Positions 24,001-30,000 of a DNA stretch of 64,000 bases are shown in pieces. Each line of letters starts with the position of its first letter. Position 1 is the stretch's first letter. Source of the DNA: Escherichia coli. Its GTDB lineage: Bacteria > Pseudomonadota > Gammaproteobacteria > Enterobacterales > Enterobacteriaceae. Position numbers: made by a program. The stretch lies in assembly GCF_017348835.2 (NCBI RefSeq), contig NZ_CP072315.1; one strand, written 5' to 3'.

Positions 24001-27000
24001 GTGGGTCAGTATCCTGATCGGTCTCTTCCCCTGCCTTCTTAGCATTTTTTTTACGTGGGTATTTTGGCTTCTCACCATTAAGTTTTGCCTGACGATTCTC
24101 CGCACGGCGAAGCTGCTTGTTCTCTGATTCTGTGATCTCTTTTGAAAGATTTCTCAACATCTCCAGAGTACTGCGGTTCAACGTAATGTTGATTTCTTCG
24201 TCAGCACTTGAATCTGTCAGCTCCGGCAATTCAATATCCCCCAGTTTCTGTAATAAGCTGGTGGTGATGAGTTTGACGCCTTCTACGGCTTTTGTGGCAA
24301 TAACCGGCGGAATCCGTGCTGGCTTGAAGTCTGAAGGTCTGACTCGTACCTGACCATGTTGGGTTTTTTTCACCGTGATGCCATTCGCATCGGCCTGCTC
24401 AAGTTCTGCGATCATCTTCTTGATACGTGAAATTGCTTCTGTTTCGCCGAGCTCATCGATCAGTGAAAGCACGTTAACATACGAAATAGCGTCAGCATGA
24501 ATCCATTTCTTGATAACAACAGAACAGGTTGTCAGGCGGATAAGAGAACTGATGGTCGTCGGGCTTTTATTTTCACGTTGAGCAATTCGTTCGAGTGACC
24601 AGCCAGCAAGAGAATGTAGGCGACGATAGGACTCGCCAAGCGCAACAGGAGAAAGCGCAAGACCACGGTTACCATCAATGGTCGCGAGCTCACAGCCAAT
24701 TTCATCTTCTTTAATCTCAACGCAAAGGATTGTGATGTCATGATCTTCATCACATGCCATCATTGCGGCTTTTAAACGGCAGTGCCCCTGGCGAACAAAA
24801 GGTACCCCATCAATGACACGTACTCGGATAGGGTCTACATAGTCACCTCGAATGTAGGCATTCTTGATGTTGTAGATGTGTTCTTCAACCTCAGGGAGCT
24901 TATAGTAATCGTCACCCATTCCCATTTCGCGGGAGTTGAAGCCTGGCGTGACCTGAATTACTGAAGGGTGGATAGCCCATGCTTTCTGGTCACTTACTTC
25001 AGTACAAAGTTCAGGGTTTGCATCACGGAACTGTTTAAGCCCAGTGACGTAACGGCCTGTGCCAGTAACTACTGAAAAGGCAACATGGGCCGTTTTAAAG
25101 ACCTTGTCATTAGCTTGCTGTGTAGGTTCTGTCAGTAAAACACTCATAGGGGCTCCGTTACATTTTTCTGCTTACTTTCTGCGTAGCGGGGATACTACCG
25201 AAAAAAAAATTCATAATTTTTCGCAAAAAAGGTACTTTTTGAGCCTATTCTGATTTTTTACAAAAAAAGGTGGCTCCCCATTACTTGTGATGGCATAAAA
25301 ATCGCTTCATAAACAAATACATAAATCCAAAACATAAAGTTCAGGTATAAGTGAGGAAAAATCTTATAAATCCGAAATGCTGAAAGTCAAAACTGTGCGT
25401 CTTAAACAACTTTTTTTTGCTCCCTAAGTTATTAGTTAAAGCCCGTGGTTAGGTACGATACCAGCACCTAAATTTCTCTCTCAGGTATAGACACTTTGAC
25501 TCGACATCTCAGACACATGCCGATAATCAAATGGGCTGGTGGAAAAACGAAACTGATGCCTTTCATCAGCCATCACTACCCACACGATCATAGTTGCCGG
25601 TGGGTAGAACCCTTTATAGGCGGTGGTGCCGTTTTTCTGAACATGTTTGCACAAAATGCATTGCTTGCAGATAGCAATCCAGACTTGATCAACCTATACA
25701 GGACTATTCAAAGACAGAAAACTAACTTTATAAATCAGGTCCAAAACTTGGCGGATAAAACCTTTGTCGAAAAGGACTACTATGAGATGAGGGACCGTTT
25801 CAACAAAACCTGTATTTCTGGTCAATCGCTTCAAAGAGCGGCTTTGTTTTACTCCCTGAATCGCCTGGGCTATAACGGTATGTGCCGCTATAACTCAGAA
25901 AGAATCTATTCAGTGCCGTGGGGGAAACATACAGAACTGAAGCTTGACCTCAATAAAATAGACTACCTTTCATTTCGTCTTTCAGGTATTGAACTGATCA
26001 CCGCTGGTTTTGAGGAGACTCTGGCCGCAACCGGTGAAGGAGATCAGATTTACTGTGATCCGCCATATGACAAAACAAGCAAAACTAGTTTTGTCAGTTA
26101 CGATGGTAAACCGTTCAGCCAAAGCGACCACGTGCTGTTAGCAAATATGCTCGTTGACGCTCACAGAAAAGGCGCTGCTGTTGCGATATCAAATAGCCTG
26201 ACATCATTCACTTTGGGCCTCGATGAAGAGCGTGGATTCGTCATACACAGACTCAGCGCTTACCGATCCGTAGGAAGTAAGCCGAATACACGGAAAACGG
26301 AAACAGAAATACTGGCCGTGCTGAAATAGAGTAAATTCTAATCAACTAGGCTAATCCATTCCTCAAAAGTTAATACCTCAGGGTAAGTTCGTTGAACATA
26401 AGGTATAAACTGAAGCTCTTCTATTCTCCGGTCGCCCCTCTTTCCTTCGCAAATAAATGAAATGAGTCCTTGCTGAGAAAGGCCAGTAAGGACGCTCATA
26501 AGTCTTATATTTAGACTTTTAAGCTGTAAGTCGTTATTAATGTCCTCCACTTTATGAGAGCTCTGGCCTGAACGTTTAAGATACTCGTAAACCATGAAAT
26601 TCGAATTTCGTCGTTTTAACAATTTTTCGGTTATGCATTCCTGAATGAAGTCGCCAAGAGCATCTAAAAGCGGACTGAGAACTACCGGGAAAGTTAATGT
26701 GTAACTTTGAGAAGTTTTAGACAAAGTGAATGAGTTTAGAAAGCTAAAGTTTAGTCTCTTTTTTGAATATGGAACATAAGCGACAAGAGTAGTCGACATA
26801 ACAGTAAGTAAAGCTTCAAGATGGTTCACTGTTATTAAAGTGGTTTTATCTGTATTTCTAAGATTATGGAAATCAATAAACGCTACTCTTGAACGGCTAA
26901 GCCAATCTTGTACTTTAATGTCGATAGAAAATTGCGAGATATGATTTGAACATTCATTTTGGGTGATAGGGCATGCAGACGAAAGATGGTTATGGATTAT

Positions 27001-30000
27001 CATGCATAGCACAAAAAAAGGAAAACGGCAGGCTGTGGGGCATTGAAAACCGGTTAAAGAAAGCTTAGACGTTTCATATGCGCTTACCGGAAAAGTAACT
27101 TTTCTTAACGTTGGCTTTGACGATGTTCTTGCATTTTTACAAATGAAACCGAGACCCAGATCATTGTGCATTTTAAAGTCCATCTCCATCATCACCTTTT
27201 AGCCTTAACTGTATGGTATTGGTATACAAAAAATTAAAATTATAATTAATAAGATTATCATTTTTTTACAATAGAAAAGGTTCTGATAGAGGGGAATTTA
27301 AATGTAAAAGATTTATACTCGCAGATCTTTATGAGGGATAAAACCCATTGCGTAAGCAACAATATTACGTGAGTGAGTCCTAACGACAGTTAAAGTCTTG
27401 GCTCTATATTTAAGCAGCAAAAACATTTAACTGTCTTGGAGTTTATTTAACTTAAAAACTGTTATTGCAGCATAATTTTTCGAATCAAATTCATAGAATT
27501 TTCTGACTTTTCCAGTCAAATGATAACGTTCACCCAATAAAATGTGATCCTGTTTATCGGCCGTTAAAGCGATCCCGTCATTTCTAACTTTACCAGTAAA
27601 TGTAAAAAAATAACTCCCTTTACTTTTTGCGTACGCGGCCCTGACTTCAGTAAATGTTAGTTCAATGCTTATGACCTGGCCGATATTGTAGCTATGTTTT
27701 AAAATTTCTTGTTCATTTTCCGGAGTTTCAGACAACATCACATCAAAAGTTGTAAAGAAACAATCCAGCTGGCGTTCTGTCAAGAAACGGTTATTGTCTA
27801 ATTGCGCCAATATACTATTAGAAAACTTAGTGTTAGCCTTTTTTGCTTTCTCAATAAGGACGTGGTTTCTGGATTTCCATGCTTCGAGTGTTGGGTTAAC
27901 ACGCAGTTCCGGAATGTTATCGAGAAAGGTAATTGGCTCTAGTGCCACTAATTTTTCAATAATGGGTCCAACTGTTTGTACCCCATGACACTTTTCACAT
28001 AAATCAGCCCCTTTGTGGCCTGTGCCCGCACATTCGTTACATTCTCTTTCGATAGGTGCATAATAATTTCCATCTCCGTTAAGTGATACATTCACTGAGG
28101 CTGGTACCATATGACCATCAAGAGTAAAGAAAAGAGATTTCATTTTCGAAACACCTCCAAACGTGCCTCTACGATTGCTACAGCTTCTTTCACAGTTTTT
28201 TCATAGTGGTCATGCCCTTCAGGAAATTGATCAAAACGTTTACCGTGTTCTAACTCTTCCATGTTGCGTTTAAGGACTTCATGAGTTAGAAGCAAATCAC
28301 TATAATTATCGATAAGAGTCAGCTTTATAGGTTTAATCACTCAACTAATCCTCGTTTTTAATATTCCTTAAGGAGATCTCGAATTTCCAGAAGCTCTTCT
28401 AATTTTGGTTTAGAAACAATGATTGCTGTATTTTCGTCGTTAAGTAAAGACAATAAAATATTTAGCTTTTCATCATTCAAGATTATTTGAACACCATCAT
28501 TGGAAAATATTACATTATTACTATTAACATTTTTGAACAAGTGTGCACTATCTCTACCAAATTTTAGTTCTGTTTGAGTATTCGTTATAGATTCCGTATG
28601 TGTACTTTCCACAAGCTCAAGAAATTCAGATTTTAGCCGTTCTGTTTTCTTATGCGAGAGGCGCTTAATACCCAAAGTCTTACGAGTGACTGCCGAATTT
28701 TTCTTTTCTGGTCCGCCTTTATTTAAGGTGTCTGGTCCTGCTCCAGCTGCATTGTGTTCAGGTATGCCTACAATTTTGCTCGTTGTAGTCTCAATATTCT
28801 TAACGCCAGGTAAGAAACCTTCTATATGTTTTAAAACCATTTTGTGATCGTTGGAATATTTTAACATTATTTCAATGGCGAGCGTTTTTTTGATTAGATT
28901 TAGGCTAATCAAACGTTGAAGCTCTAATGGCATATCAAGGATTTTTAGCATATTACGAATTGCGGTAGTTGATCGTTGATATCGCATTGCTAGTTCTTCA
29001 ACCGAATACCCGAGACTAACAGCATGAGCTAATGCATGAGCTTGCCCAACCGGATTTAGCCCATTGCTTCTGTTACCATCGAGGTTCTCAAGGTATTCTT
29101 CAATTTCGTTTTTATAATCGATTAGGATAACAGATAATTTTGGAATATTAGCACCTTCAGAAATTGCTAATTTTAAGCCATGAAAACGAGTATGACCTTG
29201 ACGAACTAAATATTTACCTTTTCTTTTTACGACCTTGATCATATCAACCTGCCTTCCTTCCTTAAAGGCTTGTTTGATTGACACAATCATCGACTTGACA
29301 GGTTCTTGTTCGTAACACAAATCTCCGATTACCGCCTCTCGGGGATTAAATCCCTTTTCAATTTCAACTAGATTAGTATCCACTTCAATGACTGTATGTT
29401 TGCTGTTGTTCATATCTTCCTCCTGTTTACTACATGATACATGAACCTCAAATTTGCCAAATAGGGCTGATACATCTAAAAGGTAAACTCAAAAAATTTG
29501 CTTAATAAAATTAAAATAAAAACTGTCTTGAATAAAACAATGATAGTAGACCCTCGTTCATTTCCGTTTGCGATCTGTAGATATTGTTAAAGGAGCGCTA
29601 TTCCTTGTTTTATATGGACTTATCATTGTTTTCAACAGGATAGATCAATTCTTTAGATCACTAAAGATCAATAGAGTTCAAGTAAAGATCACGGCATCTT
29701 TAACTCATTGATTATAGTGACTTTATGAAAGGATCCGGCATTCGGATGCATGCGAAAAGCATTTGAATGAATAAGGAAGGCATTTACTGGAATGCTTATG
29801 GCATTTAGGTTAATGCGTAAAAAGCATTTGCAAGAATATGTTATAAACAGTTTGCCAAATGAAAATCTTATCACCGACGAGTTAAGTTAATGATTAAAAA
29901 CAACGAGTTAATCCATCCTTTTGACGTAACCAGTAATGAATCAGGTAAGACTTATCAACTGACGCCTAACTCGTCCAAGTCGGTTCAGCCCGTGGCCCTG

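Follow-up and report, generated by a model that had tools for sequence, protein, structure and literature searches.

The AT-rich block between dam and the replication origin of this plasmid could be a group of DNA-handling genes of the IncHI backbone that is linked to the adjacent replicon and its origin and is induced with conjugation; this is our tentatively preferred reading. Our analysis covers a window of 64,000 nucleotides (the whole stretch of DNA analysed), which is an IncHI2 plasmid backbone. As the initial annotation stated, the block carries four ORFs and is placed between dam and the rep origin; all four lie on the minus strand. The features of the block and its two flanks are as follows.

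25496-26329, plus strand: dam, one flank of the block
26338-27195, minus strand: gene 4, 285 aa from GTG or 277 aa from the PGAP ATG at 27171; R27 orthologue R0040
27241-27265, minus strand: AT-rich block AAAAATGATAATCTTATTAATTATA, conserved across lineages in the alignment of the spacer between the Zn-ribbon gene and gene 4
27335-27392, minus strand: single-copy non-coding block, far more conserved than the flanking genes
27427-28143, minus strand: Zn-ribbon, helical and OB-fold protein (Zn/OB protein), 238 aa; R27 orthologue R0039
28140-28340, minus strand: 66-aa protein (p66); R27 orthologue R0038
28358-29413, minus strand: ParB-like-1, 351 aa; R27 orthologue R0037
about 29640-29830: origin-like region with repeats, RepHI1A/IncHI2A-type replicon
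29890-30765, plus strand: Rep3/TrfA-type rep gene, the other flank of the block

The AT-richness noted earlier is borne out by the GC content of 0.363 versus a window mean of 0.430, which puts the block in the lowest 2.5% of equal-sized windows, with only the region at about 46.8-47.2 kb comparable. It is also correct that the four proteins have no assigned function, all being annotated as hypothetical or 'zinc finger-like'. The label 'accessory' turned out to be wrong, as synteny of the block in seven IncHI-type lineages (IncHI2, IncHI1A and five further ones) makes it core backbone of IncHI resistance plasmids, and its four genes are intact in most lineages. Purifying selection acts on all four, and their rate of evolution is 2-5 times that of the neighbouring genes, with dN/dS of 0.15-0.54 versus 0.05 for rep; the value is 0.145 for ParB-like-1 and 0.54 for p66. 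The block and the adjacent RepHI1A/IncHI2A-type rep gene occur in matching numbers of plasmids, about 1393 records each (1393 for Rep at 80% identity or more, 1393 for the Zn protein and 1392 for gene 4), and about 280 of the records belong to the IncHI1-type subgroup in all three cases. The equal counts of block and replicon perhaps reflect the shared ancestry of one backbone family; there is a single sister group that lacks both.

Co-translation of the first three genes as a unit, proposed earlier from the ATGA stop/start overlap at 28140-28143, is supported. This overlap, through which p66 is translationally coupled to the Zn gene, is kept in four other lineages too, and so is the gap of 17 nt between ParB-like-1 and the p66 start. 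A single four-gene operon is unlikely, because gene 4 is preceded by a gap of 231 bp with two conserved blocks and its response in R27 differs. In the block at 27335-27392, CTGTCGTnnnGACTCACTCACGT...GTTGCTnACGCA is invariant in five lineages, and we found no Rfam match and no convincing conserved fold for it. The block at 27241-27265 is likely the promoter region of gene 4. Probably there are two transcription units, one with the tightly coupled ParB-like-1, p66 and Zn/OB genes, and the other with gene 4 under its own promoter region.

Published microarray data on R27 describe genes that are nearly silent in the wild type, with signals of 48-239 for R0037-R0040 (PMC7366339, Tables S3/S4). In an htdA mutant, in which conjugation is derepressed, R0037, R0038, R0039 and R0040 are induced 4.2-, 7.0-, 5.0- and 18.6-fold and dam 7.8-fold at 25 C, and at 37 C R0037-R0040 are not induced in this mutant (PMC7366339). 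The derepression is plasmid-wide, covering 139/181 expressed genes (PMC7366339), and hence the induction of R0037-R0040 is not specific to the block. The 18.6-fold induction of R0040 versus 4-7-fold for R0037-R0039 indicates that gene 4 responds differently from the first three genes.

The three large block proteins have nucleic-acid-binding architectures: ParB-like-1 combines an N-terminal domain of the ParB/Noc type with an HTH, the Zn/OB protein combines a zinc ribbon with an RPA-like OB fold, and the gene 4 protein has winged helices in a Rep-like tandem. The structure models of the Zn/OB and gene 4 proteins have pLDDT of 60 and 65, i.e. low to moderate confidence, and the Foldseek E-values for the predicted structures fail to reach 0.001. 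For ParB-like-1, both the ParB/Noc-type domain and the ParB HTH were found, in agreement with the earlier assignment: Pfam HTH_ParB scores 26.9 bits (cut-off 22.6), TIGR00180 matches residues 6-179 with E 2.6e-8, which is below the TIGR00180 cut-off, and phrog_1033 matches with E 1.9e-25. The family profile matches the structures of Spo0J (6sdk, E 2.4e-11) and Noc (1e-8). The two domains are homologous to those of chromosomal ParB/Spo0J and Noc, which are CTP-dependent DNA clamps, and the sequence has recognisable equivalents of Box I (GFNPRE), Box II (GHTR where the canonical form is GERR) and Box III (ENLDGNR). Unlike these proteins, ParB-like-1 and its relatives have G-H-T/C-R in Box II rather than G-E-R-R, the C-terminal half is unrelated (a region of about 150 aa is specific to the family), and both a ParA partner and a 16-bp parS are missing. 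We found no DNA target for ParB-like-1, and its promoter-proximal spacer contains neither a palindrome nor a conserved motif.

VirB of the Shigella virulence plasmid is a ParB-like anti-silencer of H-NS. It resembles ParB-like-1 in that each is an orphan ParB-like protein of a large plasmid from enterobacteria that has AT-rich, thermoregulated genes under H-NS control, and the two plasmids each carry a palindromic site that is AT-rich and of odd length. We detected no similarity to VirB at the sequence level for ParB-like-1, which shows the expression pattern of a silenced gene rather than that of a constitutively present regulator.

p66 is exactly 66 aa long in the five lineages with a complete gene and has the conserved motif GKRFDxFxEGHDxY, and family searches with it gave no matches. 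The description of its neighbour as a zinc-finger and beta-domain protein holds, and the beta domain is predicted to be an OB fold. The order of Zn ribbon, helices and OB is unlike that of RPA/SSB-type proteins and the leading-region ssb, there is no sequence similarity to SSB/RPA, the model is of low confidence, and ssDNA binding is putative. The zinc-finger protein at 2369-2839, taken earlier as a duplicate, is indeed a relative but only a remote one, with a pairwise E of 0.007; both proteins match phrog_4046 (E 0.001 and 4e-12), and the protein at 2369-2839, with 156 aa, is too short for the region that holds the OB domain in the 238-aa protein. The suggested module of ParB-like and zinc-finger proteins finds only weak support. 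The 238-aa family is confined to IncHI-type plasmids and had no phage matches: 5.8 billion proteins gave 10 clusters and 185,579 species genomes gave 9 loci, all of them IncHI-like. In Klebsiella IncHI1B/FIB plasmids a remote Zn-ribbon relative lies two genes upstream of a ParB-like gene (hhalign probability 94%), and this pairing is not independent since the locus is syntenic with the IncHI block. The two families do not co-occur in phages: 20 enterobacterial phages carry ParB-like relatives, and relatives of the Zn family occur in 3 unrelated phages.

The gene 4 protein is an orphan for which our model suggests a Rep-like tandem winged-helix fold, with no sequence relatives detectable outside this plasmid group. 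Its model superposes best on the iteron-type initiators RepE, pPS10 RepA and RctB (WH1-WH2) in two independent fold searches, and the gene lies near a genuine Rep3-type initiator gene. Unlike them it shows no sequence homology to Rep-type initiators by hhalign, Pfam or exhaustive HMM search and has no iterons on its flanks, and the model is of moderate confidence.

A 13-bp palindrome, AAAAGTnACTTTT, is dispersed over the backbone with about 18 copies in the window versus 0.6 expected (10 perfect and 8 one-mismatch sites, versus 0.07 and 0.53), and is the sole enriched 6-n-6 palindrome there. The sites in and near the block, and the second ParB-like gene, are listed below.

27091-27103: exact palindrome AAAAGTTACTTTT, a copy of AAAAGTnACTTTT in the 5' end of gene 4, encoding K-V-T-F
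26690-26708: split palindrome aaagtta-cacat-taacttt, protein motif (Y)TLTFP
25227-25239: a variant of the palindrome, AAAAGTACCTTTT as read on the minus strand, which lies 86-96 nt upstream of the start codon of ParB-like-2
23984-25147, minus strand: ParB-like-2, 387 aa; R27 orthologue R0042

The exact copy reported in gene 4 is confirmed and is under DNA-level selection. Its codons AAA GTT ACT TTT are identical in 6/6 lineages, with variation in the flanking R and P codons, and they make up the only run of four identical codons among the 107 invariant-residue degenerate columns, 18% of which keep one codon. The lineage L021 also carries this site. The split copy is present as described but is not conserved as DNA: it varies at synonymous sites (ACT/ACG/ACA, TTC/TTT, CCG/CCT/CCC), and hence reflects only the protein motif.

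In the origin-like region (C/T)AAATGC is repeated 5-6 times and (T/G)TGATCT, with its Dam GATC site, four times; the region is highly conserved in 4 lineages, unlike the ParB-like-1-proximal half of the same spacer. In our preferred reading, the AT-rich DNA would keep the block genes silenced in established cells, and they would be switched on once the cell is competent for transfer and, probably for a short time, in new recipients. ParB-like-1 may act as a ParB-type clamp on double-stranded plasmid DNA, single-stranded or unwound DNA may be bound by the pair of p66 and the Zn/OB protein, and together they could aid plasmid replication or re-establishment from the neighbouring origin, with its clustered Dam sites beside the co-induced plasmid dam. 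Gene 4 would encode a Rep-fold DNA-binding protein without an origin of its own, its expression probably being gated via the palindrome in its 5' coding region. Also in favour of this reading, rep, ParB-like-1, p66, gene 4 and dam are all missing from the Klebsiella IncHI1B/FIB locus.

An alternative hypothesis could be that the block is anti-defence or establishment cargo, part of a cluster of genes that act early in a new host to protect the plasmid DNA as it comes in or to prepare it. Orphan methyltransferases, a ssDNA-binding protein and ParB-like proteins would make up this cluster, which may be analogous to ssb/psiB/ardA-type leading-region genes. Orphan DNA methyltransferases do abound nearby (dam, a DUF4942 methyltransferase and two more upstream), ParB-like genes recur close to methyltransferases in IncC, in phage 9NA and as R0153/R0154 in R27, the four proteins are fast-evolving and lineage-restricted, their genes are silent until the conjugation-ON state, and the predicted OB fold of the Zn protein is of the ssDNA-binding type. 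We consider such a role unlikely, as comparison with the PADLOC families gave no match for the four proteins, 1:1 linkage to the replicon with strict synteny is unusual for anti-defence cargo, which normally turns over, and dN/dS of 0.15-0.25 is ordinary purifying selection with no arms-race signature. Nor is any of the four recognised as belonging to a known family of anti-defence proteins. The position of the block is fixed next to the vegetative origin and not demonstrably by oriT; in R27 it is not known to adjoin oriT, so the analogy to a leading region is loose, a point that weighs on our preferred reading too. Given its membership in the ParB superfamily and the paralogue nearby, ParB-like-1 could also serve a third partition system by binding its centromere, or be a duplicate in decay that has no role left. 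This is highly improbable and largely refuted by our data: neither ParA nor ParM adjoins the gene, the block has no clustered centromere nearby, and the plasmid already has its real parAB at 45362-47616, whose own repeat array (units of roughly 249 bp) spans 41.9-44.9 kb. Partition must act in vegetative cells, in which ParB-like-1 has near-zero expression, and the purifying selection on mostly intact genes is contrary to decay.

A regulatory rather than a replication or establishment role is suggested by KorB and its OB operators on the IncP plasmid RK2, likewise a ParB-family protein of a large conjugative plasmid. ParB-like-1, alone or with ParB-like-2, would bind AAAAGTnACTTTT and control backbone and transfer promoters, with p66 and the Zn/OB protein as partners. 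RK2 and IncHI both have a 13-bp 6-1-6 palindrome about every 3-5 kb over the backbone, in promoter-proximal, distal and intragenic positions, and the identical geometry counts in favour of this possibility. So do the excess of AAAAGTnACTTTT sites, their frequent placement near promoters (upstream of trhA, the Ig-like genes and ParB-like-2) and in or beside ParB-like genes, as often for parS, and the conservation of the palindrome in IncHI1A and its enrichment in Klebsiella IncHI1B/FIB plasmids, which retain a ParB-like-2 relative and whose ParB-like recognition helix (SEMAVRQ) resembles that of ParB-like-1 (STTAIRN). We nevertheless find it rather doubtful. ParB-like-1 is not required for the palindrome, since the Klebsiella plasmids carry it in the absence of ParB-like-1, p66 and gene 4. 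ParB-like-1 is nearly silent in wild-type R27 and, unlike KorB, silent in vegetative cells, its promoter region has no palindrome site, and the structures recovered by its family profile are chromosomal ParB/Noc ones, with none of KorB. Unlike KorB, the IncHI ParB-like proteins are only candidate binders and have no ParA (IncC) or KorA gene adjoining them, and TrhR/TrhY or another backbone factor is equally possible as the binder.

ParB-like-2, noted earlier as a GC-richer copy, is a real paralogue of ParB-like-1 (30% identity over 174 aa, E 4e-22; GC 0.469). It is 72-84% conserved across lineages with dN/dS of 0.09, and R0042 is among the most expressed R27 genes (PMC7366339). Because it is highly expressed in wild-type R27 and ParB-like-1 is nearly silent, ParB-like-2 is the more plausible steady-state binder of the palindrome, and we favour it as the candidate. 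The variant site AAAAGTACCTTTT is found at the same position in 6/7 lineages examined, with AAAAGTATCTTTT in L007, and the Klebsiella ParB-like-2 orthologue has a comparable site 112 nt upstream.

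The 4-kb region around the block matches 1114 plasmid records, from Escherichia, Salmonella, Enterobacter and relatives, at 95-100% identity. In the reference plasmid pD90-1, typed as IncHI2/IncHI2A, the block has repHI2 on one side and the Tra2 (trh) transfer genes on the other, so that the window is IncHI2 backbone. The four minus-strand ORFs of the initial annotation were confirmed, as were the ATGA overlap at 28140-28143 (p66 stop / Zn-gene start) and the AT-richness of the block, whose GC of 0.363 against 0.430 for the window is in the lowest 2.5% of 3-kb windows. PGAP starts gene 4 8 codons later, giving 277 aa. 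The genes are named here as follows:

28358-29413, minus strand, ParB-like-1 (R0037 in R27)
28140-28340, minus strand, p66, the 66-aa protein (R0038)
27427-28143, minus strand, Zn protein (R0039)
26338-27195, minus strand, gene 4 (R0040)
25496-26329, dam
23984-25147, ParB-like-2 (R0042)
29890-30765, rep of RepHI1A/IncHI2A type

Two block functions had been described as duplicated elsewhere in the window in GC-richer form, and GC is 0.469 in ParB-like-2 and 0.454 in the 156-aa zinc-finger gene. The ParB-like duplicate is a solid paralogue (30% identity across the N-terminal 174 residues, E 4e-22); the zinc-finger one is only remotely paralogous (pairwise E 0.007; common phrog_4046 match at E 0.001 and 4e-12). 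Overall, the earlier observation is largely correct, and three points of its interpretation are to be corrected.

The block is core and replicon-linked instead of accessory, as it had been called, since the same gene order is found in other lineages and its record counts match those of rep. The conserved order is rep, ParB-like-1, the 66-aa gene, the Zn gene, gene 4, dam (convergent), ParB-like-2, a DUF4942 methyltransferase, a 58-aa gene and an Ig-like gene, and it is shared by the following lineages:

IncHI1A (L003)
Klebsiella oxytoca plasmid typed IncHI1B,IncP (L004)
Photorhabdus tasmaniensis contig (L005), in which gene 4 is separated from the Zn gene by an IS630, the DUF4942 gene is broken and dam is not called
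three lineages from metagenomes (L006, L007 and L021)

Using tblastn against 72,556 plasmids, we found 1393 records with the Zn gene, 1392 with gene 4 and 1107+5+1+280 = 1393 with a Rep of at least 80% identity; the agreement is one of counts rather than of individual records. The Reps include the same ~280-record IncHI1-type subgroup as the block genes. The next-closest Reps are RepFIB-type (~45% identity) and occur in thousands of plasmids without the block. For Rep itself, an alignment of two lineages gives 86% identity. Some copies are disrupted, namely ParB-like-1 split in L007 (7725-8800), the Zn gene split in L006 (123-730), and L005 with its IS630 (2823-3854) and broken DUF4942 gene; these could be assembly errors or true decay. 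We computed dN/dS against L021, a lineage ~87% identical, and the ratios show that the block genes are functional and have diverged faster than the genes around them.

Table. Identity of the more distant lineages to the IncHI2 protein, and dN/dS against L021.
Protein; identity; dN/dS
ParB-like-1; 54-58%; 0.145
p66; 44-50%; 0.54
Zn protein; 48-52%; 0.25
gene 4; 57-63%; 0.235
dam; 66-69%; 0.14
ParB-like-2; 72-84%; 0.09
rep; -; 0.05

The block was described as one four-gene operon, and our comparison points to two transcription units instead, three genes plus one. The 17-nt gap and 4-nt overlap joining ParB-like-1, p66 and the Zn gene are kept wherever all three are intact, and L007 retains both despite its split ParB-like-1. 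Between the Zn gene and gene 4 there is a spacer of 231-280 bp with a conserved AT-rich block, AAAAATGATAATCTTATTAATTATA, and in IncHI1 a hairpin followed by T residues. A block of ~58 nt in this spacer (27335-27392, minus strand, CTGTCGTnnnGACTCACTCACGT...GTTGCTnACGCA) is single-copy, non-coding and invariant in five lineages, among which the flanking proteins are 45-63% identical. As a possible RNA element it found no support: an approximate slice of the spacer gave no Rfam match and no convincing conserved fold. In the spacer between rep and ParB-like-1, conservation is limited to the 200 nt nearest rep. The interval 29640-29830 carries 5-6 AAATGC repeats and four (T/G)TGATCT repeats bearing Dam GATC sites, which resemble the 13-mers of oriC; this arrangement appears origin-like, as for a RepHI1A/IncHI2A-type replicon. 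It lies ~3.3 kb from the plasmid dam, whose R27 orthologue is co-induced in the htdA mutant.

Published R27 microarrays (PMC7366339) label R0036 as repHIA, R0039 as 'zinc-finger protein', R0041 as 'DNA adenine methylase' and R0042 as 'partition protein'. From these labels, the orthologues of the four block genes are R0037-R0040. Their wild-type signals at 25/37 C are 100/106, 48/50, 166/239 and 168/213, where a signal below 100 was counted as not expressed by the authors, and that of R0042 is 6132/2278 (PMC7366339). In the htdA mutant at 25 C, R0037-R0040 rise 4.2-, 7.0-, 5.0- and 18.6-fold and dam 7.8-fold, and at 37 C all five are unchanged; the derepression is plasmid-wide, covering 139 of the 181 expressed genes (PMC7366339). 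The orphan 'partition' genes R0042 and R0153 were highlighted as induced in all conjugation-promoting conditions (PMC7366339).

ParB-like-1 scores 26.9 bits against Pfam HTH_ParB (cut-off 22.6), and its residues 6-179 match TIGR00180 (E 2.6e-8). A profile of both paralogue families matches Spo0J-CDP (6sdk) at E 2.4e-11, and H. pylori Spo0J and Noc as well. Going by sequence, we place ParB-like-1 in the ParB/Noc superfamily, since its N-terminal domain is homologous to the ParB/Srx type and a ParB HTH comes next. Box I (GFNPRE) is recognisable and the counterpart of Box III (canonical ENLQR) is ENLDGNR. Boxes II and III are the motifs of the CTP pocket in canonical ParB. Box II, canonically G-E-R-R (GERRxRA in full), reads G-H-T-R in ParB-like-1 of the window, and both ParB-like-2 and the ParB-like-1 orthologues have G-H-C-R, so that Gly and the second Arg are retained while Glu and the first Arg are substituted. 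Twenty 9NA/Sasha-type phages carry relatives of ParB-like-1, and in 9NA the gene adjoins a methyltransferase and a primase. Orphan ParB-like genes repeatedly adjoin DNA methyltransferase genes, as do ParB-like-2 and the DUF4942 methyltransferase (22045-25147), the pairs in an IncC plasmid (L009, 7899-11116) and in 9NA (L022, 2392-4217), and R0153/R0154 of R27, annotated as 'partition protein' and 'cytosine methylase'.

The 13-bp palindrome AAAAGTnACTTTT occurs in the window as 10 perfect and 8 one-mismatch sites, against 0.07 and 0.53 expected, and is the only enriched 6-n-6 palindrome.

AAAAGTnACTTTT sites in the window with at most one mismatch:
595, 4764, 9584, 11808, 20199, 20264, 25227, 27091, 30875
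31660, 34713, 34963, 37022, 48439, 53479, 53673, 57566, 61113

Many copies are promoter-proximal, e.g. upstream of trhA, 86 nt upstream of ParB-like-2, and in the interval between an Ig-like gene and the gene divergent from it. In IncHI1A, 19 kb of L003 contain 12 sites. Two positions are kept in all lineages, a copy 68-98 nt into gene 4 and a variant, AAAAGTACCTTTT, 86-96 nt upstream of ParB-like-2. The initial annotation noted an exact palindrome at 27091-27103 and a split version, and we located both (the latter at 26690-26708); only the exact copy behaves as a functional DNA element. It encodes K-V-T-F inside an invariant RKVTFP motif, and its codons AAA GTT ACT TTT are the same in six lineages, the neighbouring Arg and Pro codons varying. 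Among the degenerate codon columns of invariant residues in gene 4, 19 of 107 keep one codon, and the sole run of four unchanging codons is the palindrome site (P ~0.001 for this pre-specified site). The split copy encodes a second invariant motif, LTFP, and is a protein motif rather than a DNA element because its synonymous sites vary. Accessory DNA as a control has zero sites, a weak control since it is GC-rich (0.547). Our literature search for the palindrome sequence, the names R0037-R0042 and TrhR/TrhY binding sites returned the R27 microarray tables only, and the dispersed palindrome appears to be unreported before. From its distribution, AAAAGTnACTTTT looks like an operator or a parS-like site of a global DNA-binding factor.

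A Klebsiella IncHI1B/FIB plasmid (L008) is informative about the binder. Its syntenic slot holds a remote Zn-ribbon relative (hhalign probability 94%), an unrelated 254-aa gene, a ParB-like-2 orthologue (38% identity, E 1.5e-53) and a YuiA-family relative of the 156-aa zinc-finger protein; rep, ParB-like-1, p66, gene 4 and dam are all absent from the slot. In 24.7 kb of this locus there are 15 AAAAGTnACTTTT sites; five precede the gene at the trhA position, and another is found 112 nt upstream of the ParB-like gene. The palindrome also lies just upstream of Ig-like genes there. The true ParAB of L008 has its own array of 15 copies of AACAACCCCGTTGTT upstream (17065-18756 and 22108), which is centromere-type and distinct from the dispersed palindrome. 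Among plasmid records the ParB-like family numbers 2376 (739 Klebsiella) and gene 4 1392 (88 Klebsiella). Since Klebsiella plasmids carry the palindrome but lack gene 4 and ParB-like-1, the palindrome is independent of both. ParB-like-2 is favoured over ParB-like-1 as the candidate binder, because it is abundant, is the most conserved of these proteins and has a conserved site in its own promoter region. The comparison of HTH recognition helices is ambiguous, the helix of the Klebsiella protein being closer to that of ParB-like-1. TrhR/TrhY are other possible candidates. Gene 4 was attractive as well, as Rep dimers bind inverted repeats, but ~650 Klebsiella plasmids with the palindrome and without gene 4 disfavour it.

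The Zn protein is not a member of the DnaJ-type zinc fingers, scoring 20.1 bits against PF00684 (gathering cut-off 32.7) on a single CXXCXGXG-like unit. Of its four Cys residues, three are invariant, and 7 of 8 sequences retain the remaining one. The predicted structure contains a five-strand OB barrel, with putative ssDNA binding. For the 238-aa Zn/OB family, our genome-contig scan gave IncHI-like loci only, and the phage collection gave none. The Zn family occurs in three unrelated phages; therefore the pairing of a ParB-like and a zinc-finger protein, proposed as a module, recurs solely within one syntenic plasmid lineage. No relatives of p66 were detectable outside these plasmids, nor did it show homology to the 65-aa ORF that follows the ParB-like gene of IncC. 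The 156-aa zinc-ribbon protein (YuiA family) adjoins a large Ig-like-domain gene both in the window (2369-5691) and in L008 (13482-16538).

Gene 4 is predicted, with moderate confidence, to contain tandem winged helices (WH1-WH2). It has no match in the Pfam Rep families even at E 10, a PDB profile search gave no Rep, and hhalign against the neighbouring Rep gives a probability of 0.2%. On sequence grounds we therefore reject the idea that gene 4 is a diverged duplicate of that Rep, and fold similarity alone is left. Searching 1.84 billion representatives exhaustively with an HMM, we found nine relatives and no bridge to Rep_3, and none of the four relatives scanned against Pfam has a Rep domain. 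No iterons flank the gene, 26250-27450 having chance two-copy repeats only. Hence it would best be described as a Rep-like fold of an orphan family. The 254-aa Klebsiella protein was rejected as its remote homologue, being unrelated.

The most likely role of the block, though tentative, would be that of a conjugation-induced DNA-handling set working with the neighbouring origin. A KorB-like regulatory role is possible and somewhat less probable. The plasmid does have a short palindromic, operator-like sequence in many copies (18 sites against ~0.6 expected), which is a feature of the plasmid and not yet of the protein, and the comparative evidence would favour ParB-like-2 over ParB-like-1 as operator binder. 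A role in establishment or anti-defence is also possible, at a slightly lower probability; in a PADLOC scan none of the four proteins matched a defence family at E 0.01. Partition by the block is highly improbable. ParB-like-1 belongs to the ParB/Noc superfamily, yet it fails as a member of a type I (ParABS) system, without an adjacent ParA or a clustered centromere: no ParA gene is present within or beside the block, and the plasmid has its own parAB at 45362-47616 with a repeat array at 41.9-44.9 kb. We found no other dispersed motif as a target of ParB-like-1, the remaining repeat families being the repHI2 iterons and the parAB array. About twelve tandem ~249-bp repeats lie directly upstream of parA/parB (41950-44880) and presumably serve the genuine partition system as its centromere.

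We also speculate, as a rather doubtful possibility, on a ParB-family network acting on AAAAGTnACTTTT. In established cells the sites would be bound by the abundant and constitutive ParB-like-2. The normally silent ParB-like-1, co-produced with p66 and the Zn/OB protein upon conjugation derepression, would re-programme or displace it at transfer, and this would couple transfer-gene expression to the activity of the RepHI1A origin. The output under the strongest gating would be gene 4, the orphan Rep-fold protein, whose own coding sequence carries a site. If true, this would be a ParB-family network of IncHI-family plasmids that had not been described before.

IncHI1 and IncHI2 plasmids are among the main vehicles of mcr, ESBL and carbapenemase genes in Salmonella, E. 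coli and Enterobacter, and HtdA, TrhR/TrhY and H-NS explain only part of their thermosensitive plasmid-wide gene control. The exact block is found in ~1400 sequenced plasmids. Together with the dispersed palindrome, it offers a concrete, testable lead on how these megaplasmids coordinate transfer, replication and establishment, and on where that coordination could be disrupted. The two orphan families with recognisable folds (Rep-like; zinc-ribbon plus OB) could show the reuse of initiator and ssDNA-binding folds.

Other repeats were observed as well. In L003 (IncHI1A), three copies of a palindrome variant, AAAAGGCACTTTT, lie within 43-bp direct repeats (6992, 7035 and 7078), downstream of the rep gene and inside an annotated 114-aa ORF. 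In the window, repHI2 (15391-16479) is flanked by ~80-bp periodic repeats at 14080-15280 and ~17120-17170, with the core ACAACGGTAGTGA / TACCGTTGTCA and a 5-10-5 inverted motif AGTGA-n10-TCACT, which are likely the repHI2 iterons. The IncC plasmid L009 has three copies of a 16-bp palindrome, CTTTCACATGTGAAAG, just upstream of genes (940, 11984 and 15399), including the parA operon, as a separate operator-like system.
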